From Candidatus Latescibacterota bacterium (GTDB lineage Bacteria > Latescibacterota > UBA2968 > UBA8231), in NCBI GenBank assembly GCA_965203175.1, contig OZ241867.1, positions 1,536,001 through 1,600,000 of the forward strand: DNA of 64,000 bases, given 5' to 3'. Below, one piece after another: positions 5,170 to 60,428 of this stretch (within the stretch, counting starts at the first letter, position 1; the number at the start of each line of letters is the position of its first letter). Below the pieces are notes generated by a model. The model was not told where the DNA came from and did not search any database. It worked only from the letters and a program-made list of their open reading frames with translations. A program made the translations under genes and the position numbers.

Positions 5170-5183
5170 GTTAGTTGGCTCAC

Positions 5184-36289: not shown

Positions 36290-36340
36290 TCTATTTCCTC
36301 TGTGCCGTGCCCGGCTCGGAAGGGTGCCTCGGCATAGCGG

Positions 36341-36366
36341 CTTACCGCAGTAGCAGCATCCGTCGA
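36341..36366 (-). repeat. direct repeat C, copy 1 (3' end of the GH16-like gene)
   Basis: 23/26 identical to 42161-42186. Confidence 0.7.
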
Positions 36367-40096: not shown

Positions 40097-40209
40097 AGAG
40101 TCCCTCCCATTAACGGAATCATCGACCCTCCCCTTCAATCGCCTAAAAAGCGCCGCCATTCTATCATTCTATCTAGAATAAACATTCTAAATCTAGTTCC
40201 CAGCCCGCC

Positions 40210-44020: not shown

Positions 44021-46306
44021 CTAACGGCTCCCGTCGGCACCGCGCAGCGCCTCGACGATCCATGCGAACTCTTCCTCCAGATGGGTGTCACTCCCCCCTC
44101 CCTCTTGGACGAACTGGATATAGCCGTCGCCATCGACGAACCAAGTCGTAGGGAAAACATTGACACCGGCCTCTTGCACGTACCCGTCGTCCACCAACAC
44201 GGTAAAATCGTATTCATTCTCCGCCATGAACCTGTCGAGCACGTCGCGCGCGTTGCCTATGGAGATGTCGTTACTGATGGAGATCACCTCCACTCCGGGA
44301 TCGTCGAGATAGCGCGCGTGGAACTTCTGATACTCAGGCAACTCTGCGACGCAGGGGACACACCAGGTCCCCCAGAAATGAAGAACGGCGATCTTGCCGT
44401 CGAGACCGGCGGAATCGACGAACTCTCCGTCGAGCTCGGGGAGGACGAACGGTCCGTAGGTGCGGGCCGTATCGAGCCGTGATTCTAGAATCCGTTGACG
44501 TCTTCGGGACCTGTCCCGCTCGTAAAACGCGGCGAGATACTCGTCGAATCCTTCGCGCGAGCCGTGCCGGCGCTCGTACAGGGCTCCTAGCGCTTCTGGG
44601 AAGGGATCTTCACCCCAGCTTCGGGCCTCAAGACCGGCGATGTAGGACTCCTCGGCCTTGTCGAGCCAGGTGCGGACTGCCTCGGCTGCATCCCGAGCCT
44701 CGGTCTCAGTCTGCAAAACGACTGTCTTCGAATCTCGCATTTGCAGAGTCGCCTCGACCTCGGTCGCCATTTGTTCGAACACTTGGCCCAAATGATGGAA
44801 CGCACTGGTGTTTTCCCCCCAGAGCTCCAGCGCCCGCTCAAGCTCGTTGCGTCCTTCCTCGACGCGACCTGCTTTGTAGCTAGCCCACCCGATGGCGTGG
44901 TGGAGGAGGCTCAAGTAGTAGTTCAGCTCCTCCTCCTCCCACTCTTCCTCTTCGGCTTTAGCGATCACGGCTTGTATGCCATCCCGAGCGAGCTCGGCCG
45001 CCTCCTCGGCGTAGGGTGTGTGTTCGGCCATCGAGAGAGGAGCGGAGTATGTTATATGCGGGTTGAGTCGCTCGTAGCGGACCAATCCGCGCACCGCATC
45101 GGCGAGTTCCTCAGCCGGAATCGGGTTCATGGCTTCAAGGGATGTGAAGAGCGTTAGGTACGGCCACCCGCGGAAGCTATCGTCGTAGAGGGGCTTCTCT
45201 AAGAACCGATAGGCTGCGTCGCAAATGAGGCGAAGCTGGTCTTGGTACTCCTGCGAGTCCGCGCCATGCTCGGGCTCGATGAGATTAAGCTCGGGCTGTA
45301 ATCGTTGGTACTCCCGTTGGAACTTCTCTCGGTGGATCCACGACGCATGGCGACTCGCGGGAGCCAGTGCCATCAACTTCGCCTCAAACTCCGCCGCCTT
45401 CTCTTCGTCCTCCAGTACGTTCCGATAGGTCGTGGTGAGTAGGGCTAGGCCGCGTACGGTCTCCGGGGCCGCCTTCCGGTACTCGGCGATGCTGGCCTCG
45501 ATAGTGGTGTGTCGCTCGTCGGTAAGGAGCAGATCCTCCCTGTTGAGGATGTTCCAGTGCCAATAGCGCACTTCGGCAGAGCCCGGTGAGAGGCGAATGG
45601 CCTCTTCGATCAGCGAGAGCGCCTCCTGCGGCTTGTCGGACCGGTAGAGCTGTTCCGCAGCCCGAAAGTAGCCGCTGACGTGATCGGGCCAACGCGCTCG
45701 CAGCGTGGCCAAGGTAGCGAGGCTCGTGTCCACATAGGTGGGATCCTCCAGTGCGTACTGTGCCCAGTACTCGAGTTCCGCGCGGGCATGGAGGACCTCG
45801 GGATGCTGGCGTGTCTCCGCATCCAGGGAGTCCAGAAACGCCATCCCCTCTTCTACTTTTCTGGGGCGAAGCGCCTGAAGGTGCGTCGCGGCGAACTCCG
45901 GCTGGGGCAGCAGCTCCCAAGCGCGCAAGCTAGACTCGGCTGCCTCGGAGTACTTCCGATCCGCCAGAAACGCGAGTGCTTGGACGTAGAGCCCCCACGG
46001 GTTATCCGGCTCCTGTTCCAAGATTGCGTCGGCTTGCTCTTGGATTTCTCTGAGCCCGTACAACTGTCCGTGCAACTGACGCGCGTAGAGCGCCCGCAAC
46101 TCAGCGTCTTCAGGCGCGCGGCTCATCCATTCCTGGCCGAATATGGCTCCTGCCTGGAACGTCCACAGCCGATTGTGTGCCCTCAACTTCGCTTTCGCCG
46201 CTTCCAGCTCTTGGGGCGAGTAGCGCTGCTCGGTTCCGCAGCTAGCACAAACGACGAGAACGGCTAGAGAACCAGAGATCAAACGGATTGGGAATTGATT
46301 TTTCAC
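44021..46306 (-). CDS. TPR-repeat lipoprotein with C-terminal TlpA/thioredoxin domain (copy 2)
   Basis: Collinear paralog of 37832-40096; FWGTWCVPC; GTG start overlaps upstream TGA. Confidence 0.85.
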   Translation of the reverse strand: MKNQFPIRLISGSLAVLVVCASCGTEQRYSPQELEAAKAKLRAHNRLWTFQAGAIFGQEWMSRAPEDAELRALYARQLHGQLYGLREIQEQADAILEQEPDNPWGLYVQALAFLADRKYSEAAESSLRAWELLPQPEFAATHLQALRPRKVEEGMAFLDSLDAETRQHPEVLHARAELEYWAQYALEDPTYVDTSLATLATLRARWPDHVSGYFRAAEQLYRSDKPQEALSLIEEAIRLSPGSAEVRYWHWNILNREDLLLTDERHTTIEASIAEYRKAAPETVRGLALLTTTYRNVLEDEEKAAEFEAKLMALAPASRHASWIHREKFQREYQRLQPELNLIEPEHGADSQEYQDQLRLICDAAYRFLEKPLYDDSFRGWPYLTLFTSLEAMNPIPAEELADAVRGLVRYERLNPHITYSAPLSMAEHTPYAEEAAELARDGIQAVIAKAEEEEWEEEELNYYLSLLHHAIGWASYKAGRVEEGRNELERALELWGENTSAFHHLGQVFEQMATEVEATLQMRDSKTVVLQTETEARDAAEAVRTWLDKAEESYIAGLEARSWGEDPFPEALGALYERRHGSREGFDEYLAAFYERDRSRRRQRILESRLDTARTYGPFVLPELDGEFVDSAGLDGKIAVLHFWGTWCVPCVAELPEYQKFHARYLDDPGVEVISISNDISIGNARDVLDRFMAENEYDFTVLVDDGYVQEAGVNVFPTTWFVDGDGYIQFVQEGGGSDTHLEEEFAWIVEALRGADGSR

Positions 46307-47454: not shown

Positions 47455-48200
47455 GCCTCGGGCCAGTCCGGCCAGTCGGGATGCAGGTGCTTCAGCGCCG
47501 CCAAGTCGCGCTTGCGGCCGCCCGGCGGGAAGTAGTTCCAGCCCATAGCGCGCCGCGGACCGGCGGCCGTCTTCACCCCGGTGGCGTGCCAGCAAGAGGG
47601 CGTCCACACCAAAGTCCACCGTGGGTCGAGGACGACCTCGACTTCGCTAGGATGGCGGGCGAAGCAGTGCGTCGGCACCTCGTCGTGGGTGCCGGTGGCC
47701 AGTTCGAGTTGTAACAATTCAGCCTCTACCTCCTCGCGAGAGCGGTGCTGGCTGCCGGGCAGCACCCGCAGCGGTGCGTTGCTAACGTCGTGGCGATCGA
47801 GGGCAGTGCGGAAGGATACCTGCTTCACTTCCGGCCCACCGTCCACGTGCCAGTGGACCTGCCGCTGCGGCCGGCCATCGGCACTGACAATCTTCGAGGC
47901 GTCGCCGATGCCGCAGGCACCTACGTGTACCTCTTCGGCGTCCAAAATCCGCTGCGCCGCTTCGACCAACTCGGGGTGCTCCACCATCTGCAGCAACGGC
48001 TCGCCGATCATCAGGAACTGGCAGGCCAGTCGATTGCAGCCCTCGGGGAACTCGGTGCGCTCCCACTCCGGCTCGACCTCCTGCTGCCGGAAGTCGATCT
48101 GGCGCATGCCCTCGACGCCGAGGGGGTTGGGGATCAGGAAGAACCCGTTGCGCTCGAAGTGGGCGAGCTGTTCGTCAGTGAGGTCGAAAGATCCGTCCAT
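47424..48200 (-). CDS. PhyH family dioxygenase
   Basis: LTDEQLAHFERNGF, WHVD, LPGSQ, WHAT...RR. Confidence 0.85.
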   Translation of the reverse strand: MDGSFDLTDEQLAHFERNGFFLIPNPLGVEGMRQIDFRQQEVEPEWERTEFPEGCNRLACQFLMIGEPLLQMVEHPELVEAAQRILDAEEVHVGACGIGDASKIVSADGRPQRQVHWHVDGGPEVKQVSFRTALDRHDVSNAPLRVLPGSQHRSREEVEAELLQLELATGTHDEVPTHCFARHPSEVEVVLDPRWTLVWTPSCWHATGVKTAAGPRRAMGWNYFPPGGRKRDLAALKHLHPDWPDWPEARQRLWGLVD

Positions 48201-48346
48201 CAGGTATTCCCTAAGACGCTCGCAAGGTCTAAATCGAAGAAGCAGCGCTGCATCATCGGCGGGCCTTTGCTAAGCGTATAGCGGGCATTAGATTGTGCCG
48301 GCGCAAGGTAGTGAATCCGCTCTTGCCTTTCAAGGAGGAAAACGCC

Positions 48347-49000
48347 ATGGGATTTGAAGTGTACGATTGTCGCCGGGATATCCGCAATATTCTGGTGCGG
48401 CCGCAGATCCGCGCCCGCTTCTGCCGCTTAGAGCCAGGCACCGGCTCGCTCGACGCTTGGCACACGCACGACTTGGGCGACGAGATCTTTATCATTCTAT
48501 CGGGTCGGGTGGAGTTCAAAATCAACGGCGAGGTGAAAGAAGTTGGGCCGGGGCAAATGTGCTACGCCCTAACCGACGAGCCGCACTCGGTGCGAGTCAT
48601 CGGCGACGAGCCAGTCTATATGTACCTCTCGGTGACGCCGCACATCCAGCCGACGCATACGTTTTACGACGAAAAGGGCGAGCGCCAGCCGCCCAACTTC
48701 AGGCCGTCGAGCGATTACAATACCGAGACAGATTCGACCACGCCAGTGGCCGAGTTAATCGACGGCCACATCGATGCCGTGCGTGCCCTAGCGGCCCAAG
48801 CACAGGAGAGCGCGCGCATCCAAGAGGAGCGGGGCCAGGAACTCAAGCAGGCCCTAATGGCCGGCGATATGGAAGCGGCCGACCGCGTGCGCGAGGCCAT
48901 GTGGGAACCGCTTTTGCAGCTCTTCAAGCAGACGAGCGCCGTGGCGGATGGCTGGAATGGATTGGCACCCCGGGCGGGGTCGGTCGATGCGGTATATTGA
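48347..49000 (+). CDS. cupin domain protein with helical C-terminus
   Basis: AAGGAGG RBS; WHTHD..DEIFIILSG...PH. Confidence 0.85.
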   Translation: MGFEVYDCRRDIRNILVRPQIRARFCRLEPGTGSLDAWHTHDLGDEIFIILSGRVEFKINGEVKEVGPGQMCYALTDEPHSVRVIGDEPVYMYLSVTPHIQPTHTFYDEKGERQPPNFRPSSDYNTETDSTTPVAELIDGHIDAVRALAAQAQESARIQEERGQELKQALMAGDMEAADRVREAMWEPLLQLFKQTSAVADGWNGLAPRAGSVDAVY

Positions 49001-49054
49001 GTCGTCGCAAAACCACCGTCCTACCGCAGCGAAAACCGCTGTGTATCCGGCGGA

Positions 49055-49501
49055 CTACTCCACGCCCGTTTTCACGGTACCACAATAGAACTTGTAGTAT
49101 CTATGCTGCTGCAGTCCTAGCTCCTCGTAGAACGCGGCTGCTGGCGTCGCCTCATTGGCAATTAGGGACATGGATACTTTCGATTCCCCGATTTTGTCGA
49201 GCAGATGACGTACCAGTCTTCGTCCGTGGCCTGACCGCCTTTGATCAGGTTCGATAAAAAGCTCCTGCATGTAATAGTTGATTCGGTCTTGCCAGGGATA
49301 GCAGTATCCGAACATCGCTCCGATCACGTCATCTTTGTCGAGGGCGACGAGGCAATGCTCGGGATCGAACTTCCAGAATCGACTGAGGTAGTGATGGGCC
49401 TGGGTGACACTCCACGATTCCTCGTACGGCCATTCGGAGAAAACCTGCACGAATAGACACGCGCAATCTCGCAAGTCCTCTGATGTGATGGCCCGTATCA
49501 T
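49055..49501 (-). CDS. GNAT family N-acetyltransferase
   Basis: ELFIEPDQRRSGHGRRL, AAAFYEELG. Confidence 0.88.
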   Translation of the reverse strand: MIRAITSEDLRDCACLFVQVFSEWPYEESWSVTQAHHYLSRFWKFDPEHCLVALDKDDVIGAMFGYCYPWQDRINYYMQELFIEPDQRRSGHGRRLVRHLLDKIGESKVSMSLIANEATPAAAFYEELGLQQHRYYKFYCGTVKTGVE

Positions 49502-49567
49502 TCTACGTACTCCTCATATTCCGCCTCAAAAATCATTGTCTGGTCTTTAATTCTTGGCTAGGCCGTA

Positions 49568-49870
49568 TTAGTCCTCCGTCTCAACGAGCGACCAACGCTT
49601 GCCCATGCGCTCAAGTTCAGGAAGATGCTCAGGCCAATCATGTAAAGTGGCTGGATCAAAATCAGCCCCATTCGGCCATACCAGAGTATGGACCTCAGGA
49701 TCAATCCGAACTTGATTGAATAAGGATACATCGCGCAGTGGACCGAATAATTCACCTTTCAATATGGCTTGGAAAGCGATAGTCTGTTCCGTCTCATCGT
49801 CAAAACAAACTCGAAGTGTATAGGGTGCTTGTATTTCAAAAGAGATCACTCGGTATATGGGATGACTCAT
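49568..49870 (-). CDS. DUF2442 domain protein (putative antitoxin)
   Basis: YTLRVCFDD, FGPLRD..LF, TLVWPNGADFDP. Confidence 0.88.
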   Translation of the reverse strand: MSHPIYRVISFEIQAPYTLRVCFDDETEQTIAFQAILKGELFGPLRDVSLFNQVRIDPEVHTLVWPNGADFDPATLHDWPEHLPELERMGKRWSLVETED

Positions 49871-49881
49871 GTTGATCTCCT

Positions 49882-50151
49882 TTATTGAAGAGGGTCGATT
49901 TTGAAAGGTGCTTGACCTGATTGTAACCGTTCCCAATCTGTCAGTAATTCTTCATGGTGTAACTCCATCCAAGCCTCAACTAGGCGCTGCTGTCGCCGGG
50001 AAAGTTGTCCCGCGATCAGTTCAATGGTATCAATGGCATATACACCAACATCCTCTTGGTAATAAGCGTGAAGGTGAGGTCGGTGATGAGGTGCATGAGG
50101 CTCGGCATACATTCGTATTATGATGCCGAAAAATCGGGAAATTTCAGGCAT
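49882..50151 (-). CDS. DUF4160 domain protein (putative HicA-like toxin)
   Basis: MPEISRFFGIIIRMY...H.PHLHAYY...LVEAW..LH.EEL..DW...KIDPL. Confidence 0.9.
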   Translation of the reverse strand: MPEISRFFGIIIRMYAEPHAPHHRPHLHAYYQEDVGVYAIDTIELIAGQLSRRQQRLVEAWMELHHEELLTDWERLQSGQAPFKIDPLQ

Positions 50152-50162
50152 TTGTCTCGGGA

Positions 50163-50654
50163 TCAGGTAACTTCGTTCAGCCTTCCGGTGGCGCAGTCAT
50201 AGACGAAGCCCCGCACGTCGTCCTTATTCGGGATGAACGGGCTGGCCTGAATGCGGGCGATCGACTGCCGTACGTCCTCCTCGAGATCGCCGAACGCCTC
50301 TAGGGCAAAGGCCGGGCGGATGCCGGTATCGGCCGCGATCGCGTCCTTCACGTCGTCGTCGCGGAATGTCAGCATGCCGCAGTCCGTGTGGTGGATGAGC
50401 ATGATCGAAGTCGTGCCTAACAACCGCTGCGAGATCGTCAGCGAACGAATCGCGTCGTCGGTTATCACGCCGCCCGCATTCCGAATCACGTGCGCGTCCC
50501 CTTCTGCGATCCCCAGCAGGCTGTGCGTGTCGATGCGCGCGTCCATGCAGGCCACCACCGCTAGGTTCAGCCTTGGAGGCAGGGGAAGGTCGCCCTTATC
50601 GAAGTTTTCGACATAGCGGGCGTTATTCTCGAGAAGTTCATTGATAATGGCCAT
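50163..50654 (-). CDS. beta-class carbonic anhydrase (clade D)
   Basis: ACMDAR, IRNAGG, HHTDCGM, GFVYD..TG. Confidence 0.93.
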   Translation of the reverse strand: MAIINELLENNARYVENFDKGDLPLPPRLNLAVVACMDARIDTHSLLGIAEGDAHVIRNAGGVITDDAIRSLTISQRLLGTTSIMLIHHTDCGMLTFRDDDVKDAIAADTGIRPAFALEAFGDLEEDVRQSIARIQASPFIPNKDDVRGFVYDCATGRLNEVT

Positions 50655-50822
50655 CAGAAATTTCCTTTCGCCGTCGGTTGCGTCTGCGTCAGTCCATGTC
50701 CAGCGGGACGATGCAGACCGTGATGATATTTGTATAAGTAAAATCAAGTCGATGAACGCCTGCAATGATCGGGCAAGCTACCTGATTAGCGTTTGCGATC
50801 CTTGTTATTAAGCGGCTCGAAA

Positions 50823-51359
50823 CTATTCAGACCAGAGTCGCTCGAATCTCAATCGCCCATCACCGGCTTCTTTGAGTGCGAATACGTCTGGATTCGATAG
50901 CGATTCCCATCCAGCGTAGCCGAAATTAGGGTCCAATGAGTTCAGGATCAGACTCAAGAGATTGCCATGGGTTACCGCAATTGGGAACCGGTGATCACCG
51001 TCGAGTGGCTCGGTGATGGCGGCCCAGCCGCGGTCTAACACTTCGCGTGCCGACTCGCCTCCCGGTACCCGCAATTCCAAGTCTCCAAATGAATCGCGGA
51101 CCACCTCGCGCCAGTTGTCAATCGGACTCCCCGAGAGCGTCCGTTCAATTAGGCGGAGATCCAAGTGGACGGGCAATCCCACTGTGGCAGCAAACGGTTC
51201 AATGCTTTGCTGTGCCCGCGCGTAGGAACTGGAGACAATTATATCGATCGGATAATCGGACAAGAACCTAGCGAGTGCTTCCGCCTGTTTTCGCCCAATC
51301 TCTGTCAGCGCCGCATCCGGGTCTTGCCCTGATGACTGACAATGTCTAATCAGCAACAT
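50823..51359 (-). CDS. histidine phosphatase (phosphoglycerate mutase) family protein
   Basis: LIRHCQS, LTEIG, SSSYARAQQS, PGGES, VTHG. Confidence 0.88.
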   Translation of the reverse strand: MLLIRHCQSSGQDPDAALTEIGRKQAEALARFLSDYPIDIIVSSSYARAQQSIEPFAATVGLPVHLDLRLIERTLSGSPIDNWREVVRDSFGDLELRVPGGESAREVLDRGWAAITEPLDGDHRFPIAVTHGNLLSLILNSLDPNFGYAGWESLSNPDVFALKEAGDGRLRFERLWSE

Positions 51360-51366
51360 AGCTTGA

Positions 51367-52296
51367 TCACGACCACCTAGATTTCAGGTCCACCTCAATT
51401 TCCTGCCAAGGGACTTGCAGTTTTGCGGCTGCGGCCATTAACGCATACACGACGCCGTTGAACTCTTCTGGAATCCCCGTTTCCTGCGTAAACGCTCTCA
51501 CAAACTCAGCCGATTCCTCGCCGACCTTCTTGCAAATCGCATTGCTGTCAGCAAGGAGCTTTGACGTACTGGAGCCGGTGGGCTTTTGCGCGACTGCGGA
51601 TATTCTCCGGTACTCCTCTTCCCATGGATTGACAATTTCCCGTCCGATCAATGAGATGTCGCTGAATCGGACGACCTCGGCGACCTTGAGTCCGGTCTTG
51701 GACATTGCGCTCTCGGGCGAGCGTTCGCCGCGATACACCACCTCGACACACCAATCGTGCGTACCCTCTGCTACCGTGTTTTCCGTGTCTCCAGCATAAG
51801 CAACGATACTGATCTGCAGCTTGCTGGATTGGAAGCGCTGCGACAGATACTGGCGCGAGGAGAGGTCGTATTTCTTGTTCACGGCAATGGACACCACTGC
51901 GGACGAATCTGGAATCTGTCCTTCGCGATTCAACAGACAAAGGGCCGGCCGATAGAACTGAGCATTTGGATCGAACCAATCGTAGGTATTGAGGACTCCA
52001 AGTGGAGAATCCCCAGCGCCCAGCATGTACTCGTCGAATAGATCGTCTCCCGTGAGTCCGTACGCGACTTCTCCCCGTAGGAGGCAATCGTCAACTCGTT
52101 GGGGCACATCCTCGCCCCGCGCCGAAATTATTTCGAGGGCTCCCACGCTCTCGTCAGTTCGGATAAACTCACCTCCGTCGCTAACGCCAATCTCACTCAG
52201 GAGATTGTTCACGTACTCATGCAAACCACTGTTCTTGGGAATGTAGAGTTTGGCCTTTGGTTCAGGAACGAATAAACCGATTGCTTCGCGAAACAT
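51367..52296 (-). CDS. divergent fusion of short-form ATP phosphoribosyltransferase (HisG-like) and phosphoribosyl-ATP pyrophosphohydrolase (HisE-like)
   Basis: HisG-like: IPKNSGL, RGEDVP, GLTGDDLFDE, KKY, GDTE, VEVVYRG, GLKVAEVV..S. HisE-like: GSSTSKLL, KKVGEESAE, IEVDLKSR. Confidence 0.75.
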   Translation of the reverse strand: MFREAIGLFVPEPKAKLYIPKNSGLHEYVNNLLSEIGVSDGGEFIRTDESVGALEIISARGEDVPQRVDDCLLRGEVAYGLTGDDLFDEYMLGAGDSPLGVLNTYDWFDPNAQFYRPALCLLNREGQIPDSSAVVSIAVNKKYDLSSRQYLSQRFQSSKLQISIVAYAGDTENTVAEGTHDWCVEVVYRGERSPESAMSKTGLKVAEVVRFSDISLIGREIVNPWEEEYRRISAVAQKPTGSSTSKLLADSNAICKKVGEESAEFVRAFTQETGIPEEFNGVVYALMAAAAKLQVPWQEIEVDLKSRWS

Positions 52297-52385
52297 TTGT
52301 TACTCCTTTTGCACACGGTTAGGTCAATATCCGGTCAATCCGACCAACGTGCAATGACAGGTCTCCCTCCGGTCGGATAGAGGAA

Positions 52386-53723
52386 TCAAGGGTTTGGAAT
52401 TCGTCGGATCCACAGGCGAATTTGCGCCGGGGTGGGCCGTCGAACATTTCCAGGGAGCGCATTTATCCGGTCCTCTACTTGCGCGGCAGATGAAGCGGCC
52501 AAATCCGCCAGCGAACGAATGCCGGCTTTGACCAGCAAATTGCCGTATTCCACTCCAATGCCTTGGTGCAGGTACAGTTCGACGAGGCCACGAGTACCTT
52601 GAGTGCGTTCTCGACCCAACGCCCCTTCCATTTGCCGCCAAATTTCCGCCGACTCTCCAGCTTCCAAATCGGTCAGATAGACGATGCCCTCGTCCTGCAA
52701 AAAAGCGCGAGCAGCCGGATCCAGACTGTCCACTTTGGCCAAGCGCGGCTTCACCGAGCCGACGTTCAAGTAGATGTAGTGGTTGACCGTCAGAGCGAAA
52801 GCCGCGGCCAAAAGAACGATGACGAGCGCATTCCAGACCTTGGTTGGCCTTGGGCGCTGGTCCCGGTGCGCTCCCAATGGCGGTGCCAACCTGTACCACA
52901 CTAACAGGCGATAGACTAGAGCGCATTCCACGGCAAAGGGAGGAAAGCCCAAAAAGCCGGCCAGCGGCATTTCAAAAAGTTTAAACTCTTCAAAAAAGGG
53001 TACTGTGTAGATCCACTTAACTTGGGCCCAATAGTTGAAGAATTCCCACAGACCTCCGGCGATAAATCCGGCCAGCAACTGGCGAGTCAGTGGTGTGTAA
53101 TCGCCGCGTGCCAATTGATGCAGCAAGCTGTCGGGCAGGCGGCGATATTCGACAGGAGCTAAGAGCAGGATAAAGGCCAGCCAAGTGAGCGGGAAGAAGA
53201 AGCGCGGCCACACAAGGACCAGCGCTAGCCCGATCAGGCCGGCTATTTGCAGGAGGGGTAGACGACGAGGAGTCAGCGACCAACGACGACCCTGCCAACC
53301 GGCAACCACGCCGCGCAGACCCAAGTAGTATTCCAACCACAGCAGACCGGGGAAAACAGTGGCAAAGGAGAAGACCGCGTTCAGCGTCTGCAAAACAAGG
53401 TGGTCGAGGACGAAGATGTAATACCAGTTTTGCAGACGGAAATTGATCAACTCAAAGGCGTACCACCCCACTGCGGACCAAAAAAGAATCAGCAAAAAAG
53501 CCGGACCGCAGCGGGCGATGAGCGAGCGCCCTTCCCGCCACTGGATGAGTCGGTCTAGAGTCCAGATAATACCGTACCAGGCGAATAGGTAAAACAAGGT
53601 GGTCACAGGTTCCACCCGGCGCAGCATGAGGACAAAGGAAATCCCGATGAACAAGGGGCCTAATAGAAGCAGCAGCGCGGACTGGAAACGGCGCGAATCC
53701 AGCGGCGCGGAACAGGTGGTCAT
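52386..53723 (-). CDS. membrane protein with C-terminal DUF4332-like (HhH) domain
   Basis: Multiple TM segments, WYAFELIN, GLWEFFNYWA..KW.Y, KLFEMPL.GFLGFPPF; GIGVEYGNLLVKAGIRSLADLA. Confidence 0.7.
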   Translation of the reverse strand: MTTCSAPLDSRRFQSALLLLLGPLFIGISFVLMLRRVEPVTTLFYLFAWYGIIWTLDRLIQWREGRSLIARCGPAFLLILFWSAVGWYAFELINFRLQNWYYIFVLDHLVLQTLNAVFSFATVFPGLLWLEYYLGLRGVVAGWQGRRWSLTPRRLPLLQIAGLIGLALVLVWPRFFFPLTWLAFILLLAPVEYRRLPDSLLHQLARGDYTPLTRQLLAGFIAGGLWEFFNYWAQVKWIYTVPFFEEFKLFEMPLAGFLGFPPFAVECALVYRLLVWYRLAPPLGAHRDQRPRPTKVWNALVIVLLAAAFALTVNHYIYLNVGSVKPRLAKVDSLDPAARAFLQDEGIVYLTDLEAGESAEIWRQMEGALGRERTQGTRGLVELYLHQGIGVEYGNLLVKAGIRSLADLAASSAAQVEDRINALPGNVRRPTPAQIRLWIRRIPNP

Positions 53724-54631
53724 TGGGAAGAATCGAGTTCCAAAACTGCGGCCAAACTGTCGCCTTGGTGGACGCGGTTGAAGACCCGCAGACACAAGAT
53801 CAAACCCGCTTGGGTCGATGCCACTTCCTCGCGCCGCTGCCCCAGATGATCAACCACTGTGCCGATCACATCGCCCGGTTGCACCGGCGCTTTCAATGTA
53901 ACCCGAGGCTCAAAATAACCGGCAAAGGGCGCTGGGTAATTGACTTGTATGTGACCAGAGTTTTCGCGGTCGTCTTCCACGGTGTACTCGGTGCGCAGGG
54001 GCGGCAGAGCACGGTCGATCATGTCCACTTCGGCCAAGACGTTCAAGCAGCCCTCGAAATAAGCATCCGCGCCCTCGGGATCGCACGTGCCACCCCCCAT
54101 CCACTCGGCGTAGATGGCCGGCACCTTGGCGTCGCGGGCCACTGAGAGCGTGCGTCCGTCGAGGCGAGCCGAAGTGCCCCAGATGATGGGCATATTCAGC
54201 GCTCGGGCCATGCGCCGTTGTACATCGAGGATAGCTTTATCGGGGTGCAGGGCGTATCCCACGGTAGGATAGAATTCCATGACTATCCCGCCGCTGTGCA
54301 GGTCGATGAGATAGTCGGCCCGGCGGATTTCCTCGCTGACGGCGTGGGCCGTGCGCTCGGTGATCGAGCCGTCGGGCCGGCCCGGGCAGGTGCGAGCCAA
54401 GTCCAACTCGTCTTCAGCCGTGCGCTGGCCGCGCCAATAGGCCGCCTCGTTGACTACGGGGATGGCCGTGAGGCGACCCCGCAGGTCCGCTGGATCGAGG
54501 TAGTCCAGCAGGCGGCGAATGGCTGCCATAGACTCGAACTCGTCGCCGTGGACGCCGCCCAGGATCAGCAGGTTGGGACCTTTTTGGGCCCCTTCTATTA
54601 CTTGTTGTTGCAGGGTGATTGTCGGAGTCAT
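53720..54631 (-). CDS. succinylglutamate desuccinylase/aspartoacylase (M14) family protein
   Basis: GGVHGDE, DLARTCPG, IDLHSGG, AEWMGG. Confidence 0.9.
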   Translation of the reverse strand: MTPTITLQQQVIEGAQKGPNLLILGGVHGDEFESMAAIRRLLDYLDPADLRGRLTAIPVVNEAAYWRGQRTAEDELDLARTCPGRPDGSITERTAHAVSEEIRRADYLIDLHSGGIVMEFYPTVGYALHPDKAILDVQRRMARALNMPIIWGTSARLDGRTLSVARDAKVPAIYAEWMGGGTCDPEGADAYFEGCLNVLAEVDMIDRALPPLRTEYTVEDDRENSGHIQVNYPAPFAGYFEPRVTLKAPVQPGDVIGTVVDHLGQRREEVASTQAGLILCLRVFNRVHQGDSLAAVLELDSSQ

Positions 54632-54670: not shown

Positions 54671-55627
54671 TCAACTGTCATCGCGATAAGGACCTGTATC
54701 AATGCCGGGTAGGGTATGCTCCAAAAGGTCTAGCGTTTGGCTGGTGAAGTACGGGTGTCCGGGTTCGGGCCAACCGAACAGGCCGCGCACTCTGGGTGTG
54801 GTGGCCGTGAAAAAGGGCAGCATGTGATCGCGTTCGCCGTAGATAAAGGGATTGGCGAACCGGGTCCAGCGATCATTATCGCGGCGACACATGGACAGAG
54901 TCCAAAAGGCGCGCTGCTTGCGCTTATTGGCAAAGGGTTGCGCCGCGTGTACTAGGTAAGACGAGTAGAAGAGAGCCGCCCGCCGCCGACCCGTGGCGGG
55001 GACCGGAGCGGACAGTTCGGTGGCTTGGCGCAGGTCTTTGAAGGATCCACCCGCGGCGTTGTCGTGGTCCAGCGCCCGCACAAAAGCGGGACCAGCTACT
55101 TTGTGCGAGCCGGGAATGACCAGCATGGGGGCACCGTCGTCTTCGACATCGTGCAGGTACACTCCCGAATTGACGTAGTCGAAACGGCCTATTTGGTCGT
55201 GGGGCGGCAGCAGGCAATTGGTGTAGTGGTCGATGTGGTAGCCCTCCCAAGGATTGTCGGGATGGCGCTTGTCAGTAGGCCCCGAGCGCATAAAAAGGTG
55301 GGCATTGCAGTAGCTGGCTTTTGCGTCCAAGCATTGCTCAAAAACGTCGAGATAAGTCTCGTTTTCTATCAGCCGATCCAAAGCCGGCGCGCCCACGGGA
55401 AATTGCGAGCGGCCCTCGGAGTGGTCGTGCGTGGTGGTGAAGCCGTCCGAGACTCCGGAGGCATTGCCGCGGTCGCAAGCGGCCAGCCATTGCTCGAAGG
55501 ATTGACCGTAGAAAATCTGTTCCATCGCCGCTAGAGCGGCATCCATCTCGTCGGCAGTGAATAGGTCGGGGACAATGATGTAGCCGTCGCGGTGGAATTG
55601 GTCGAGCTGGGCTGGCGTTAGGCTCAT
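54671..55627 (-). CDS. PhyH family dioxygenase
   Basis: LTPAQLDQFHRDGY, YHID, IPGSH, LVHAA...R. Confidence 0.88.
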   Translation of the reverse strand: MSLTPAQLDQFHRDGYIIVPDLFTADEMDAALAAMEQIFYGQSFEQWLAACDRGNASGVSDGFTTTHDHSEGRSQFPVGAPALDRLIENETYLDVFEQCLDAKASYCNAHLFMRSGPTDKRHPDNPWEGYHIDHYTNCLLPPHDQIGRFDYVNSGVYLHDVEDDGAPMLVIPGSHKVAGPAFVRALDHDNAAGGSFKDLRQATELSAPVPATGRRRAALFYSSYLVHAAQPFANKRKQRAFWTLSMCRRDNDRWTRFANPFIYGERDHMLPFFTATTPRVRGLFGWPEPGHPYFTSQTLDLLEHTLPGIDTGPYRDDS

Positions 55628-55759
55628 GGGGTCTCGATCTAGTAAGGTTGAGGTTGATTTTCAAGCGGTTGGTGGTAAGATACCGCACTCGACTAGCGAG
55701 TCAACTCAAGGAGGAAACCGGCCTTCAATGAGATTTCCGAACTTTTTCTCCTTCGTCTT

Positions 55760-55787
55760 TGAACCTGTACTTTCCGGGCGGCGTCTT
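55760..55787 (+). promoter_or_regulatory. putative ECF-sigma (autoregulatory) promoter
   Basis: TGAACC-N16-CGTCTT ending 18 bp before the sigma ATG; matches the AAC/CGT consensus of ECF promoters. Confidence 0.6.
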
Positions 55788-55805
55788 TATTTCCAGAGAG
55801 CCTTG

Positions 55806-56405
55806 ATGCAGATACCGGACCCACAACTCATAGCGCAAATAAAAGAACGCGATGAACGCGCATTCCAGCAGTTCTTTGAGCGCTATCGGGAGCAGATCCA
55901 CGATCACGTGCGCCGCATCGTTCGCGACGATGCGAGTGCCAACGATGTAGTGCAGGAGGTTTTCTTGCGAGTGTGGAACCGGGCCGGCCAATGGAGCGGT
56001 CGAGGGGCTGTAGCTGCTTGGCTGTTTAGCATCGCCACTCATCTCTCCCTGACTCACCTGCGCACCGTGCGAAGGCGGCGGGAACAGCGGCTGGAAATGC
56101 TGTCTGAAACCGTGGAGCAGGAGACGCAGCAAGTGCCCGAATGGATGATTGAGGCGGCGTCCGAGCGCCCCGACGCCCAAGTGGAACGGGCCGACCAGCA
56201 GCGCTGGTTGCGGCGACAAGTACAAGAACTGTCCGAGGACAAGCGCGAGGTTTTCCATCTGATCTACGACGCCCAAGTAGAAGTGCGGGACGCCGCCGAC
56301 CGCTTGGGCATTCCCGAAGGCACCGTAAAGTCGCGGCTGCACCACGGCCGCCGCCAACTCTCACAGGCTTGGCAGGCCATCCATAACCCGGAGGAGCATG
56401 AATGA
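55806..56405 (+). CDS. ECF (group 4 sigma70) RNA polymerase sigma factor
   Basis: Region 2 ANDVVQEVFLRVW...AWLFSIATH; region 4 LSEDKREVFHL...AADRLGIPEGTVKSRLHHGR; an upstream ATG at 55728 is possible. Confidence 0.93.
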   Translation: MQIPDPQLIAQIKERDERAFQQFFERYREQIHDHVRRIVRDDASANDVVQEVFLRVWNRAGQWSGRGAVAAWLFSIATHLSLTHLRTVRRRREQRLEMLSETVEQETQQVPEWMIEAASERPDAQVERADQQRWLRRQVQELSEDKREVFHLIYDAQVEVRDAADRLGIPEGTVKSRLHHGRRQLSQAWQAIHNPEEHE

Positions 56406-59400
56406 CATTGAATCTCGACGTACCTTGGCATAGGGAGTCCTTTGACCTTTTCGTCCACCAGCGACTGCCCCAGCTTTTGGGCGAGCGCTTGCCGCTGGCC
56501 GATTATCAAGTCGAACAACAGGACTCCTATACTTTTTCCATTAAACTGAGCTTGGGACTCGGCGATGCCCCGGTCGAGGTTGAGTACCGAGATTTGCCTC
56601 GGCCCGACCGCGATGGTCTTTTCCACATTGAAGGCAACTACCGGGTCGTGGTCCCCTATCCCGACCGGCGCGAACTCGCTCAAGCGCGGATTCTGTGCGT
56701 GGGCGAGCAGCTCTACGACTTTATTGACCAAAGATTGGAAGCGGCTCCTGAGCAATTGGCTTGGGATGGCGACTTAGTGCGGAGTTGGCTGCCGCTAGAC
56801 GCTTGGATGCGCGACTTCCACTTGGAGGCAACTTCCCAGTACCTCCAGGCGACCAACTGGCTTGACCGCTATACTCATCTGCGGCGGCTGACTTTGATCC
56901 CCATCGTTGACGAGCCTTTTGTCGACCAAGACGTTTTCCCCGACAGCCAATACGGCCTAGTGTGCCCCCACTGCACTCCCGAGGGACCCAATATCGGCCG
57001 AGTGCTAGAAGTAGCCCGCGGTGCCCGCATCCGCGACGGCAAGCTCGAACGGATCGACGAAGCGCCCGACAGCATCTTGGGTTTTTCGGCCTCCATGGTG
57101 CCCTTTCTCGAACACGACGATACCAATCGCGCTCTGATGGGCATCAATATGATGCGCCAGTGGACGAGCGCCGCCGATACCGCGGCACCGGTCCACGCCA
57201 CGGGTTGGTTCCGCCAGCAGCACGATCAGCGCTTGGCCTCCAAGGGCCACAAACCCGAACCAGCCCTAGTGCAGACGGGATACGAGCCGGAGGCCGCCGA
57301 CTTTTGGGGCGGGTACAATCTGCTGACCGCCTTCGTCATGTGGGATGGGGACACGTTTGAGGATGGCTTAGTCATTAGCGAGTCGGCCGCGGCGCGGATG
57401 GACTTTCCCGCCGCAGTGGGGGTGGGCGACAAACTAAGCAACCGCCACGGTGCCAAAGGAGTGGTGGCGCGCATCCTGCCCGACGCCGACATGCCGCAGT
57501 TGCCCGACGGTACGTCGGTAGAGCTCATTTTGAGTCCGACCAGTATGGTCTCGCGGCTCAACTTCGGCCAGCAGCGCGAGGCGGTCATGGGTCGCATTGC
57601 CCGAGCCGAGGGGACTCCGGCGGTGGTGCCGCCTTTCCAAGCACCCAGCGAAAAAGTGTTGAAAGCGCGTCTGGTTGAGGCGGGACTGCCCGAAGACGGC
57701 ATGGAGCAACTGACCCTCAAAGGCGCAAAGCTGCCCTATCGCAGTACCGTGGGTTGGGTGTACTGGGGTCTTCTGGCGGCCCACACTGCGGCCGAGCACT
57801 TGGAAACCGCGGTGATAGGAGTCGGCGGACCAGCGCTCGACATGATGGCCTACGGAGCTTTGAGCGAGGCCGGGGCCGTAGCCAATATCCACGCTTTGTT
57901 CAACACGGCCGCGGCTGAGCGGCCCGACGCCGATGCGCTAGGCCAGCGTTTGGCTTCTGACCCAATATCCCCGTCTCCGCCTCCGTCTCCACGCTTTGCT
58001 CTATTGCAGCAGTTGTTGGGTATGGCCGGGATACGGGCCGAGTTGGCGGGCGGGGCATTGCGCTTTGCCTTTGCCGAGCCGAAGGGATTGACCTTGGCTC
58101 GCCCCGTGTCGCACCCGTGGGCACCGGGACGCCAAGTAGGGACGGTGGGAGATCCCGGCGCTTTGCCTGCGGGGATCGAGTTCGACCCGATTCGAGGCTG
58201 CTACGAGGATTTGGTCGAAGCTAATACGCGTTTGCAGCGCATCATCGATAGCGAAGCGCCCGAGGCTCTGGTCGGGCCAGCAGTGGCACAGGTGACCCAA
58301 CGGGTGGAGGATTTTTTTATCGCGTTGTTGCGCCCGGAGCACCTCCACTTTCAAGCAAGACCGCTGTTTAGCGGCCGGGCCGCGCTTGTCTCTGGTTTTG
58401 AGTTGGAGCTCGACCAAGTGGGCCTACCCGAGGAGATGGCCTGGAATTTGTTCGGGCCTCAGGTAGAGCGGGAGATAGGTCGCGCCGAGGAAGTGGCGCA
58501 GCGTTCGCCCCGAGCGGCTAAGGTTCTGGACGCGATCATGGAGCGCTCGTGGGTGCTGCTGTACAGCGCCCAGCGGGTGCTAGTTGACGATGGCCCGGCG
58601 TCCACCGCAGTGGTGGCCTTTCGTCCGCAGCGTTTGGCCGGGGCCGCAGTGCGCGTCCATCCGCGCATTTGCCGACTGATGGAGCTAGATTTCGACGGCG
58701 ATCAGATCGAGGTGTTTTTGCCCCTCACTGAGGAAGCCCAGGCCGAAGCCGAAACTGCGCTGTCGGTGGCCGGGCACATACAGCGCGACGCGGATATATG
58801 GCGCTACGTGACCGACAACTACCACGGCATGATATGGGGCTTGGCGCAGCTTTGCCGCACGGAGGAAGGCCGCGCCGAAGTGGAACGGCTGACCGGAGTG
58901 GCCGTGGATGGCAGTCGGCTGTTCGTCAAGCACGACCTCAACCGCTTATTAGCTCAGGTGCTGCAGCGCGAGGGCCTAGAGCGAGCACTGGAGGTACTCG
59001 ACCAGCTAACGCGGCGCGGCTTTGAGGTCTGCAAGCAGTCGGGGGCCTCCTTCAATCCCTTCCTCGGTTCGAGCAAGGAGTGGCCTGAGCAACCCGAGGA
59101 AGCCGATTGGGACGAGTGGCAAATGTACAGCGACGAGTTAGTGGCAGCTTTCTACCAGCAGGCCGATTTCGACGACAACGACTTGGGGCCTTTGGCTCTG
59201 TTGTCGCTGTCGGGGGCGCGGGGCAACCAACAGCAGTTGATCCAATACGTGGGCGGCGGTCTGCTCTATCGGGAAGATGGCAGTCTATTCGCTCAGCGCG
59301 GTTGTTGGCGCGACGGCCTGTCGGTAGAGGAAACCAAGGTGCGGGCCCCGCGTGCCTTATGGTGGGGTCTGGCCGCCGCCAACCAGCGCTGGATTGAGGC

Positions 59401-59566
59401 GCAGGAAGCGGCCCAACAGCCCGTCCGTGCCGATTACCACGTTTTGGGCCGGGCCGCCAAGGCCGCGCAGCCGGGCGTAGTCTTTGCTAGAGCGGCTGAG
59501 CGCGGAGAGACCGATCCGCTGACCAGCCTATTCAGCCGGCTCTTTGCAGGGCTACCAGCGAACTAG
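56402..59566 (+). CDS. miniaturised single-chain RNA polymerase beta-beta' fusion-like protein
   Basis: RpoB blocks: [80 protein letters not shown]. RpoC blocks: LARPVSHPW, clamp helices, FSGRA, VGLP, VHP, LDFDGDQ, SGARG, RDGL, AA.RGETDPL. ATGA overlap with the sigma gene. Confidence 0.9.
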   Translation: [1054 protein letters not shown]

Positions 59567-59579
59567 GTCTCAATCAATG

Positions 59580-60428
59580 TTACTGTACCACCGCTTCGTC
59601 GCCCAAATGCTCGCGGATCCACGCTTTCAGCGGCACGTCTTCTTCTTTCGGCGAGGTGTAGCCGTGCCCGCCGCTCGGACCGGCACCTAATAGCTGCTGC
59701 CGGATCGGATCGCAGCGGTCCATCAGGTGATCCACCGTCATGTCGTCGCGTGGCCGCAACCAGCGGTAGCTATAGCCGTAAAACAGCGCCCTGCGCGCGT
59801 CGGGCGAAAAGTTGTGACCGGCTGCATGCCAGATCCGCCGATCAAAAAACACCGCGTCTCCCGCCGCCACTTGGATCGGCGTTGTGCCTACTGGATCTAA
59901 GTCTTCGTCCTCGGGCATCTCGATCTCGTTTTTCAGGTGCGAACCGGGTACTGCGTGGAAGTTGCCGCGATTGGTCTCAGTGCAGTCCGTGAGAAAGTAC
60001 GCCACCTTGAGCGAGACCCTCGGCCGGGGCTGAGTCTCCATGTCGATGTTGAGCCGCCCACTGTCTTGATGCCAACCCAGCCGCTTGCGCGCGGGCACCA
60101 CGCCGTCTAAAGGCGGAGTGACGATCAAGTGCGAGTGGTAGAGTTGAATGTGCCAGCCCAAAATCCCGAAGACCTTGGCAAACGTCTTTGGCCAGTCGAG
60201 CAACTCCAAAAAGAGTTCGTCTTTGCCGATAAAGTCGAAAAAGTTGTGCATCTGGTGCTTTTCCAGCCCCTTTTGCAGCCGGGCCTCGGCGTCGAGGCGA
60301 TCGACGACGGGGATGAGCTGGGCGACTAAATCCAAGGGCAGCACATCGCGGACGATGAAGAAGCCGTCTTCGTCAAATTGGCGGCGCTCCTCCTCGGTCA
60401 ACGTATATTGCAGGCAGGTTGCATCCAT
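59580..60428 (-). CDS. PhyH family dioxygenase (paralog of 30595-31437)
   Basis: WHQDS, VPGSH, FDRRIWH, FYGYSYRWLRPRDD. Confidence 0.9.
   Translation of the reverse strand: MDATCLQYTLTEEERRQFDEDGFFIVRDVLPLDLVAQLIPVVDRLDAEARLQKGLEKHQMHNFFDFIGKDELFLELLDWPKTFAKVFGILGWHIQLYHSHLIVTPPLDGVVPARKRLGWHQDSGRLNIDMETQPRPRVSLKVAYFLTDCTETNRGNFHAVPGSHLKNEIEMPEDEDLDPVGTTPIQVAAGDAVFFDRRIWHAAGHNFSPDARRALFYGYSYRWLRPRDDMTVDHLMDRCDPIRQQLLGAGPSGGHGYTSPKEEDVPLKAWIREHLGDEAVVQ

Follow-up and report, generated by a model that had tools for sequence, protein, structure and literature searches.

The window analysed here, a stretch of 64,000 nucleotides (nt) from a Candidatus Latescibacterota bacterium (contig OZ241867.1, positions 1,536,001 to 1,600,000), carries on its forward strand, at 56402..59566, a gene of 1054 amino acids (aa) which begins with ATG, contains no internal stop and encodes in a single chain a reduced version of both catalytic subunits, beta and beta', of RNA polymerase (RNAP). 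The gene belongs to a real, selected and widespread unnamed family of fused and minimized bacterial-type beta::beta' chains, which have a conserved catalytic centre and are inherited together with a dedicated sigma factor of the extracytoplasmic function (ECF) type. On balance the locus is probably a two-gene minimal transcription module, in which a 199-aa ECF-type sigma factor is coupled to the 1054-aa single-chain core, and the presence of this polymerase and sigma module alongside a full-length rpoBC points to a second transcription machine beside the normal RNAP. The module is best read as new within the two-barrel RNAP superfamily.

Family assignment and genome context

An earlier note, made from the letters of the window alone, had described an intact open reading frame (ORF) with blocks of RpoB followed by blocks of RpoC, and the Pfam scan bears this description out: RNA_pol_Rpb2_3 matches polymerase residues 146-210 (29.5 bits), the best stretch of RNA_pol_Rpb2_6 lies at residues 340-455 (110.6 bits) and RNA_pol_Rpb1_2 matches residues 736-787 (46.1 bits); each of them exceeds its curated cut-off, and the beta domains precede the beta' one. 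The motifs quoted in that note also lie where it had placed them, with QYLQATNW... from nt 56837, [14 protein letters not shown] from nt 57425 and DFDGD at nt 58688-58702. A phmmer search of the polymerase against PDB chains returned 156 distinct sequences at E<=0.001, among which the closest beta chain is 8i23_C (2.6e-42) and the closest beta' chain is 8k60_D (3.5e-21). The cut-offs of the housekeeping equivalog models are not reached, the scores being 160 bits against 801.15 for RpoB (TIGR02013) and 93 bits against 963.5 for RpoC (TIGR02386), and neither are those of the models for full-length beta/beta' fusions (158.9 bits against 5372 for NF007172 and 150.2 against 4632 for NF011417). Bacterial models outscore archaeal ones, by 160 to 104 bits for rpoB and by 93 to 22 bits for rpoC, and on the basis of these model scores and of its motifs the family is classified as bacterial in type.

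The host genome consists of one 6.58-Mb contig. It contains, at G000:C1:3922559-3930348, the separate canonical rpoB-rpoC pair whose existence the earlier reading presupposed, and both of these genes exceed the equivalog cut-offs, the genome's own rpoB scoring 1816 bits in a 1271-aa frame and its own rpoC occupying a 1368-aa frame.

Anatomy and predicted structure of the polymerase

The regions kept and lost in the polymerase were mapped with a family profile (A1), built from 47 diverse members sharing 35-97% identity, which was aligned by hhalign with the genome's own RpoB and RpoC. The names and roles given here to the RNAP elements of the polymerase are textbook knowledge, while the alignments themselves were computed. 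Profile residues ~88-524 align with residues 394-1260 of the 1264 of RpoB (E 3.3e-50, 434 columns, 34% identity), and profile residues 588-995 align with residues 264-769 of the 1364 of RpoC (E 1.4e-33, 385 columns, 28% identity).

The beta-like module (residues 1-530; 56402..57991, + strand), recognized by hhalign and the structural aligner VIA-align, is a version of RpoB skeletonized from N- to C-terminus, without the lobes and the flap. Where RpoB begins with ~390 residues that form the lobes, the polymerase has ~88; it also lacks two internal segments, and in the hhalign alignment the ~250 RpoB residues at the flap site, between FEDG-V-SE and GDK..RHG.KG, are cut to ~10. A fork/Rif-cluster-I-like segment, CP.ETPEGPN and PFLEH.D..R.LMG.NM.RQ are kept. 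After the ...NMMRQW motif there is an insertion of ~25 residues (residues ~259-283, window 57176-57250), which lies outside the match columns of the family profile and is modelled with a predicted local distance difference test value (pLDDT) of 85-90.

The fusion junction and the remnant of the beta' N-terminus occupy residues 531-591 (57992..58174, +). The N-terminal ~260 residues of RpoC, including the zinc-binding cysteines, have shrunk to a remnant with the LA.PV.HPW block, which in the polymerase is [11 protein letters not shown] at residues 563-573, and residues 520-600 contain a single Cys and no zinc-binding cysteine cluster. The junction had been placed near nt 58045 (residue ~549), which is indeed past the point where the beta-like alignment ends (~524) and short of the beta' block at 563-573, and the model blocks covering residues 531-591 have pLDDT 92-96. 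Next come the clamp helices, a coiled coil at residues 592-642 (58175..58327, +) which corresponds to the genome's own RpoC from residue 264 onward and is modelled as two long antiparallel helices, 592-616 and 621-642. In canonical RNAP the clamp helices are the docking site of sigma region 2.

The RpoC alignment stops at RpoC residue 769, inside the F-loop and the start of the bridge helix. Beta' beyond the bridge-helix start is absent from the polymerase apart from a C-terminal motif, so that the trigger loop and the jaw are missing. The model does contain a long bridge-helix-like helix of 30 residues (residues 975-1004, window 59324..59413, +), which is diverged in sequence and is placed, as expected, after the F-loop-like SGARG segment. 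No trigger loop lies between this helix and the C-terminal motif, A(R)AA..GE.DPL, where there are ~20 residues only; the motif is conserved in the family alignment and may correspond to beta' region H. The losses which the earlier note had listed (lobe, flap, zinc domain, jaw and trigger loop) thus agree with the RpoB and RpoC profile alignments, and its statement that mainly the two double-psi barrels are left is right about the barrels, but more than these survives: the fork, the clamp helices, a switch-2-like FSGRA segment, the F-loop segment and the bridge-helix-like helix have been kept as well.

The AlphaFold2 model computed from alignment A1 has a mean pLDDT of 93.0 and a predicted template modelling score (pTM) of 0.90, with no segment below pLDDT 50, and each of its halves matches the subunit expected. 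In a Foldseek search against the PDB the matches, at probability 1.00, were beta chains of bacteria and plastids (8ras_C, 5.3e-22) together with beta' chains (4mey_D, 1.6e-18), and viral RNAP models scored lower (best 8.7e-18). VIA-align, run against chains B or C of bacterial, archaeal, eukaryotic and African swine fever virus RNAPs, superposes model residues 1 to ~468-555 on the second-largest subunits with Z 27-30 and root-mean-square deviations of 2.3-3.1 A over 430-526 residues. Because the ranges aligned on the target chains, which run from residue ~20 to ~1045-1342, i.e. up to the C-terminal region, cover the second-largest subunit end to end, the beta-like half is the skeleton of an entire subunit and not a fragment of one. 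These matches concern each half of the model separately, on beta or on beta' chains.

Distribution, selection and read support

Homologs with the same fused and reduced layout, which the earlier note had made decisive for its proposal, are numerous. A word-indexed search found 568 proteins at E<=1e-3, and 110 of the best 120 listed relatives are 1002-1077 aa long, with 43-97% identity to the polymerase at 99-100% coverage. An exhaustive HMMER search of 1.84 billion representatives gave 8749 matches at E<=1e-3, housekeeping subunits among them, and at E<=1e-30 there were 347 representatives at 50% identity; about 64 of the 150 matches listed have lengths of 945-1101 aa and identities of 33-53%, and most of the others are fragments. 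The ESM Atlas holds clusters of the same architecture at 1026 aa (73 members) and 1006 aa (135 members). All family members that bear a source name are called ‘hypothetical protein’. The named records come mostly from Latescibacterota, and otherwise from Gemmatimonadota-labelled sponge metagenome-assembled genomes (MAGs), Poribacteria, Hydrogenedentes, Armatimonadota/Chthonomonadales, Bacilli- and Clostridia-labelled MAGs and a Dictyobacter MAG (Chloroflexota). Larger, uncharacterized fused proteins were also seen, namely three of 2241-2309 aa (P0261, P0263, P0266) which are 36-37% identical to the polymerase over the matched stretches, and ESM Atlas clusters of 1221-1787 aa in which Rpb2_6 and Rpb1_2 are fused; given these intermediate sizes, the ~1000-aa family may be the small end of a series.

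Within the phylum the polymerase gene was found in 66 of 168 genomes, in 19 of the 52 of high quality and in 21 of the 30 other genomes of the window's genus. No internal stops occur among the matches listed, and one genome (G071) has two separate full-length places. This pattern is that of an accessory yet maintained gene. The ratio of nonsynonymous to synonymous substitution rates (dN/dS, by the Nei-Gojobori method) between the window gene and 18 relatives at 87-94% identity, all without internal stops, is 0.145-0.189 in 18/18 comparisons, and regional values from six comparisons are 0.15-0.26 at the junction (residues 476-590) and 0.05-0.31 in the clamp helices, so the earlier suggestion that the chain is kept by selection stands.

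Sequence from other samples was compared with the locus, which is present in sequencing runs that bear the labels sponge, coral or marine metagenome (20 rows, belonging to 11 studies; the best holder may be the source sample itself). The four runs compared consist of short contigs, and among the pieces listed none spans the whole stretch. When the locus is divided into 30 bins, contigs from two further DNA runs reach every one, and one contig (X1 record 5, 58021-58350) covers the junction region, with 24 letters only to the left of nt 58045. Contigs of two metatranscriptome libraries fall on 27 and 21 of the 30 bins, and one from an RNA library (X17 record 18, 56266-56966) runs from the 3' end of the sigma gene into the polymerase gene. 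These RNA-library contigs are compatible with expression and do not prove transcription, and the bins without RNA cover carry no meaning. One X3 contig skips 1615 letters (57193 to 58809) with a side of 21 letters, and is taken to be a chance or foreign join.

The sigma partner and the operon

The key feature of the locus, mentioned by the earlier note in passing, is the linkage of the polymerase to a sigma factor. The sigma gene (55806..56405, +) encodes 199 aa from the ATG at 55806 and contains Sigma70_r2 and Sigma70_r4_2. It scores 98.5 bits against a cut-off of 42.9 in the sigma70-ECF model TIGR02937 and has regions 2 and 4 only, which assigns it to the ECF class (group 4), and it reaches none of the cut-offs of the named sigma equivalogs and subfamilies, the best being PRK12515 with 125.9 against 236. 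The longest ORF starts at 55626, and the true start is probably the ATG at 55806, because most orthologs are ~195-200 aa long. At the other end of the gene (56391..56405, +), a Shine-Dalgarno sequence, GGAGGAG, stands four nucleotides upstream of an ATGA overlap formed by the polymerase ATG (56402-56404) and the sigma stop TGA (56403-56405), an arrangement which indicates one operon with translational coupling.

An ECF-type promoter-like motif, TGAAC-N17-CGTCT, lies at 55760..55786 (+), ~20 nt upstream of the sigma start and downstream of another sigma ATG at 55728; a promoter directly before the sigma gene is the classic ECF autoregulatory layout. The motif has a single match in the window, where 0.08 are expected and where 8 of 100 shuffles reach 1. 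By eye, TGAAC-N17-YGTCT can also be seen to precede the sigma gene in four distant loci (L030, L031, L032 and L034); L033 has it in a less clear form and L029 lacks it, and an extended form, GGGCGG-YGTCT, is common to the window clade, L031 and L032. In a genome-wide scan the extended motif returns the operon's own site only. A scan of 55400-59900 for generic sigma-70 promoters and terminators gave nothing above chance.

In 15 of 19 examined loci the gene immediately upstream of the polymerase, in the same orientation, is a sigma ortholog; they comprise 13 of the 14 in the first set and both of two further divergent loci (L122, L124). The four loci without it are L038, for which there are only 141 nt of upstream DNA, L018, which has a clean deletion, and L025 and L039, whose polymerases are truncated. 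Besides L122 and L124, the locus searches with divergent members yielded only L121, a fragment without flanks, and L123, which lies on the contig of L038. A locus search with the family alignment picked motifs that housekeeping rpoB has as well, and the 80 loci it brought up were canonical rpoBC and were left out. Across 8 distant loci the sigma gene is the sole common neighbour, the remaining neighbours being unrelated ordinary genes, and no third conserved gene is common to them. A hidden Markov model (HMM) built from 51 module sigmas (A2) still reaches 219 and 246 bits in the lineages that diverge most, and in the window's own genome it gives 311 bits to the module sigma and 102 bits to the best of 12 other ECF-type ORFs, a gap which marks the module sigmas as a dedicated subfamily.

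The two genes also occur together at the level of genomes. When the 168 genomes of the phylum were searched for the polymerase at E<=1e-60 and for the sigma profile at E<=1e-45, the sigma was found in 63; both genes were found in 62 genomes, the polymerase only in 4, the sigma only in 1 and neither in 101, counts in which related genomes are not independent, and the co-occurrence recurs over ~16 genera. Among the polymerase-only genomes, two have truncated frames (G136, 373 aa; G146, 966 aa), one has a C-terminal part near a contig end (G149) and one is intact (G143), and in the sigma-only genome (G156) the sigma lies 380 nt from a contig end.

The catalytic centre

The residues on which catalysis depends in two-barrel polymerases were examined in the 47 members of the family alignment. 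In the beta catalytic ‘basic’ motif (57425..57466, +), G342, D343, R348 and G350 are present in 47/47 members, and the two-barrel pattern [12 protein letters not shown] is found with K344 in 42/47 (Arg in another 4) and K352 in 43/47. R385 is present in 46/47. In the FEDG motif the Glu is found in 40/47 (with Asp in 3 more), and D321, the equivalent of Rpb2-D837, in 42/47 (with Glu in 3 more). The beta' catalytic DFDGD (58688..58702, +; residues 763-767), which provides the Mg-binding Asp triad, conforms to the acidic two-barrel motif DxDGD, with D763 in 45/47, D765 in 45/47 and D767 in 44/47, and the family consensus is NADFDGDQ, NADFDGDQ.AV being the same as the motif in the genome's own RpoC. 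Residues other than Asp in the triad are Gly at D763 in two members, Ser and Gly at D765 in one each, and Asn and Gln at D767 in one each. Because the catalytic residues are near-invariant across the family, they argue for an active polymerase, and it is from this conservation that we infer polymerase activity of the 1054-aa protein.

Eight residues are described in a 2010 review as invariant in all two-barrel RNAPs, and they include Rpb1 R446/P448, the equivalents of E. coli beta' R425/P427 (PMC2919709). The window protein holds 6 of the 8; at the positions of the Arg and the Pro of the RxP loop it has Ser722 and Gln724. Its nucleotide-selectivity loop is thus altered to S722-A-Q-R725 (58565..58576, +), where the beta' ‘RxPxLH’ motif universally has R-A-P-T. 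In the window clade YSAQR(V/M) is found in 19/19 sequences, while in the whole family the Arg is kept in 36/47 members and the Pro in 40/47. The position of the RxP loop was set by its spacing to the Asp triad, which is 35 residues in the genome's own RpoC and likewise 35 residues from R425 to D460 in E. coli.

Interpretation and competing explanations

The reading preferred here is that of a sigma-directed minimal polymerase. RpoB and RpoC would have been fused head to tail and then cut down to the catalytic core; the sigma would dock on the retained clamp helices and guide the mini-core to promoters of the ECF type, among them the TGAAC-N17-CGTCT of the operon itself; and the pair would act as a second polymerase, which would be insulated from the factors that use the missing domains to act on the housekeeping RNAP. 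Having no trigger loop, the polymerase would be expected, by analogy with the phage enzyme YonO discussed below, to lack proofreading and to be less accurate. That sigma and polymerase form a minimal holoenzyme is given a chance close to even, if anything slightly above it, and the broader claim, that bacteria of several phyla possess a second, orthogonal two-protein transcription apparatus composed of an ECF-like sigma and a ~115 kDa single-chain core, is tentative and falls just short of even.

Several observations weigh against this reading. The predicted complex of the sigma with polymerase residues 476-1054 has a score of 0.44 (0.38, 0.44 and 0.45 in separate runs), while none of 3 controls exceeded 0.00. 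Contacts common to the runs amount to at least 33%, the pLDDT of the partner is at least 65, and the alignments were made for this analysis. In calibration 58 of 80 solved complexes and 2 of 110 mismatched pairs attained the mark, and a score at or below 0.60 was found for only 7 of the 80 solved complexes and for both of the mismatched pairs that passed. Since sigma-beta' complexes have already been solved, the score may show likeness and not binding, so that the model lends weak support to the binding of the sigma by the polymerase. In the canonical holoenzyme the tip of the beta flap positions sigma region 4. The flap is deleted from the polymerase, which therefore lacks the canonical docking site for region 4, and the -35 element would have to be recognized in some other geometry. 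It is just as conceivable that the sigma reads the promoter motif together with the housekeeping core. Over the 6.58-Mb genome TGAAC-N16-18-YGTCT occurs 50 times, against 64 in a reversed-sequence control, so that the scan found no regulon and identified no target genes. In L018, a locus of a close relative on a 4.56-Mb chromosome which is probably the same as genome G143, the sigma ORF and its promoter have been precisely deleted (window 55730-56371 is missing), and an intact 1047-aa polymerase stands behind the old leader (L018:7911-8010 against window 55653-56402); this is a naturally sigma-free variant, or else the loss of the module has begun here. Some genomes of the genus g31 have an unrelated gene inserted between sigma and polymerase on the same strand, which is a 597-aa ABC exporter in two of them (L125:1153-2946 and L127:3333-5126; genomes G077 and G087) and an unrelated 381-aa protein without a Pfam family in a third (L126:3467-4612; G080). 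In the Armatimonadia locus L038 the gene after the polymerase likewise encodes an ABC exporter, whose 32% identity to the g31 exporter is a generic similarity. Finally, 2-3 of the 47 family members are without one Asp of the catalytic triad, and these may be inactive paralogs or reflect errors of alignment or sequence.

The altered selectivity loop weighs in the same direction, because it raises a question about the substrate. Makinen et al. identify beta' Arg425 as the main determinant against 2'-dNTPs, with the R425K substitution lowering selectivity 17-fold at binding and 25-fold at incorporation, and name Arg425, Asn458 and trigger-loop Gln929 as the conserved contacts of the 2'-OH (bioRxiv 10.1101/2020.06.30.179606). 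In the window protein the equivalents of the first two are S722 and E761, the trigger-loop Gln is absent and the equivalent of Pro427 is Q724. With the equivalents of Arg425, Pro427 and Asn458 replaced and the Gln missing, the substrate of the window clade may be something other than ordinary nucleoside triphosphates (NTPs), although R725, three residues downstream of S722, might compensate for the missing Arg. The archaeal DNA polymerase PolD carries its dNTP-selecting PHT motif on the same loop (PMC7708050). That sugar selectivity in the window clade is relaxed or switched, and that its members make DNA or mixed polymers, nevertheless seems rather unlikely.

Taken together, the missing flap, the sigma deletion in L018 and the altered selectivity loop make credible a rival explanation, unlikely but by no means negligible, in which the polymerase is active and does not use the sigma, while the sigma and the housekeeping core only switch the operon on, and the polymerase carries out some specialized, promoter-independent reaction such as primer- or RNA-templated synthesis or, in the window clade, synthesis with relaxed ribose/deoxyribose selectivity. 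The failure of the genome-wide scan to find a regulon, the weak model support for sigma binding, the loss of the three 2'-OH contacts in the window clade (S722, E761 and no Gln929) and the coincidence of its loop with the PHT site of PolD (PMC7708050) all fit this explanation too. It does not explain why the clamp helices have been retained under purifying selection, nor why a dedicated sigma subfamily, tightly coupled to the polymerase, has been inherited with it across phyla; R725 might make up for S722; and an altered substrate cannot account for the whole family, in which 36 of 47 members keep the canonical Arg.

The remaining explanations, in which the polymerase is a decoy, a mobile element or an artefact, are unlikely. 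Anti-sigma genes usually follow the gene of an ECF sigma factor with translational coupling, and the order of a sigma gene and a coupled partner seen here is that usual layout, so that the polymerase could in principle be an anti-sigma-like decoy which sequesters the sigma on its retained clamp helices instead of transcribing, the more so as no other conserved neighbour in the 8 distant loci would fit as an anti-sigma. Such a decoy would, however, have no need of 1000 residues, of near-invariant catalytic residues in both barrels among members at 35-97% identity, or of purifying selection along the whole chain, and it is regarded as improbable. Slightly more improbable still is a YonO-like polymerase of a phage, a plasmid or another selfish element, integrated by chance. 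Its patchy occurrence, in 66/168 genomes of the phylum and in 21/30 other genomes of the genus, the spread of the family over several phyla and an insertion sequence (IS) transposase which adjoins the module in L029 would suit such an origin, and the known single-chain two-barrel RNAPs are phage- or plasmid-borne (PMC5467207, PMC2919709). A phage, plasmid or defence origin was nevertheless rejected, because 0 of 32 matching phage records and 0 of 68 matching plasmid records cover at least 80% of the polymerase, and because none of the PADLOC anti-phage defence families matches the sigma or the polymerase; in the annotated phage and plasmid records the matched features are rpoB/rpoC, and among the PHROGs one family, annotated ‘RNA polymerase beta subunit’, and two of ~1200 positions without a name were matched. 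The neighbours of the module are, moreover, ordinary metabolic genes, and its GC content is like that of most of the window. A decaying rpoB/rpoC duplicate or an assembly chimera, finally, has already been refuted and retains practically no probability: nothing was found in its favour apart from the few truncated relatives (G136 and G146), dN/dS is ~0.16, the fold is confident, contigs of two further DNA runs lie on all 30 bins, and the other genomes listed, many of them single-contig chromosomes, have the same frame, again free of internal stops.

In the textbook view a bacterium has one RNA polymerase core. If the preferred reading, of a sigma-directed minimal polymerase, is true, there is a second bacterial transcription machine, a widespread, selected and chromosomal mini-core that has a sigma to itself. 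No smaller sigma-dependent RNA polymerase would then be known, and factors that work through the missing domains, perhaps inhibitors too, would not affect it. The family would offer a natural answer to the question of how little of beta and beta' promoter-directed transcription needs, with the roles of the flap, the trigger loop, the lobes and the alpha scaffold becoming testable in a natural protein, and it might provide synthetic biology with a compact and possibly orthogonal sigma/core pair. The replacement of the ribose-selecting arginine in one clade would be a natural experiment on sugar selectivity in two-barrel enzymes, tied to the transition from RNAP to PolD.

Relation to known systems

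The window protein is clearly homologous to both housekeeping subunits, RpoB and RpoC, and keeps their clamp helices, but it is one chain of 1054 aa where the genome's own subunits are two chains totalling ~2630 aa, it is without lobes, flap, zinc-binding domain, jaw and trigger loop, and it is accessory and patchy in its distribution. The full-length beta::beta' fusions represented by NF007172 (2890 positions) and NF011417 (2839 positions) have the same order, beta then beta', and are, as far as is known, the only RNAP of the cell, with Helicobacter and Wolbachia as the examples given in the earlier note; the window protein has ~36% of their length and stands beside a canonical rpoBC.

The closest architecture is found in Orf6 of pGKL2, a cytoplasmic killer plasmid of yeast, with which the comparison is by description. 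Orf6 is a 982-aa Rpb2::Rpb1 fusion from which about half of the sequence has been deleted; it keeps the two barrels, the bridge helix, the fork and the hybrid-binding parts, and has no detectable trigger loop (PMC2919709). Like the window protein it is a single chain of ~1000 aa in which the second-largest subunit precedes the largest, but it is of eukaryotic type, is without lid and rudder according to the same review, belongs to a linear cytoplasmic plasmid of a few yeasts and has no sigma partner, whereas the window family is bacterial in type, chromosomal and sigma-linked. The earlier note had claimed that the architecture was undescribed. No bacterial description was found, and to that extent the claim holds, but it had overlooked this eukaryotic plasmid analogue. 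A full-text search of the literature likewise found no bacterial fused beta::beta' protein of ~1000 aa and no link of one to a sigma factor, although an earlier mention in surveys or supplements is possible. Among the nearest proteins described is also NCgl1702 of C. glutamicum, which has 2169 aa (PMC2919709).

A precedent for transcription by a minimal chain is provided by YonO of the Bacillus subtilis SPbeta prophage, which is reported to be an active, ~100 kDa, single-chain, two-barrel, DNA-dependent RNAP without a trigger loop, having few catalytic residues in common with the multi-subunit RNAPs and a promoter-recognition factor that is unknown (PMC5467207). Compared with YonO, again by description, the window protein can readily be aligned with RpoB and RpoC, has no full-length match among the phage records searched and comes with a dedicated sigma. 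The locus resembles the operons of ECF sigma and anti-sigma factors in that the sigma gene comes first, is followed by a coupled partner and is preceded by an autoregulatory promoter of the GAAC...CGTC type, but the partner in those operons is a membrane or soluble anti-sigma and here it is a polymerase core. DP2 of PolD, the archaeal two-barrel DNA polymerase, has likewise replaced the arginine loop of ‘RxPxLH’ and changed its sugar selectivity (PMC7708050); PolD combines PHT with NxDGD and the window protein SAQR with DFDGD, a likeness that implies homology at the level of the superfamily only. A second gene for a catalytic subunit within one genome is also known from rpoB(R) of Nonomuraea (PMC5431353) and from the alternate beta' of Beggiatoaceae (PMC4679880), which are described as full-length subunit paralogs and not as fused, reduced chains.

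Genomic surroundings

The genes around the module are syntenic among close relatives and heterogeneous among distant ones. Two genes of PhyH-family dioxygenases flank it, both on the minus strand (54671-55627 and 59580-60428), the one divergent and the other convergent, and an AstE/AspA-like gene, two GFO/IDH/MocA oxidoreductases and a methyltransferase also lie beside it. This PhyH/AstE/GFO neighbourhood is conserved only among relatives at >=87% identity. No ribosomal genes, phage genes or tRNAs lie near the module in the window annotation, in agreement with what the earlier note had said of ribosomal and phage genes, and the window has the make-up of ordinary chromosomal DNA. The GC content of the module, 0.617-0.625, is near that of most of the window (~0.60-0.65). 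Dips in GC content occur at 4001-6000 (0.53) and at 48001-54000 (0.55-0.56), the latter just upstream of the module's neighbourhood.

Elsewhere in the window, two paralogous-looking proteins that combine TPR repeats with a C-terminal AhpC/TSA-redoxin domain are encoded on the minus strand at 37832-40159 (775 aa) and 44021-46306 (761 aa). ORFs without a Pfam family at E<=1e-5 lie at 2601-4181 (+, 526 aa), 5768-7708 (+, 646 aa), 12522-14759 (-, 745 aa) and 34274-36385 (-, 703 aa), of which the last overlaps other long ORFs and may be no gene. A UvrD-like helicase of 1068 aa (7705-10911, -) has its helicase domains from residue ~465 onward, preceded by a long unassigned N-terminal region.

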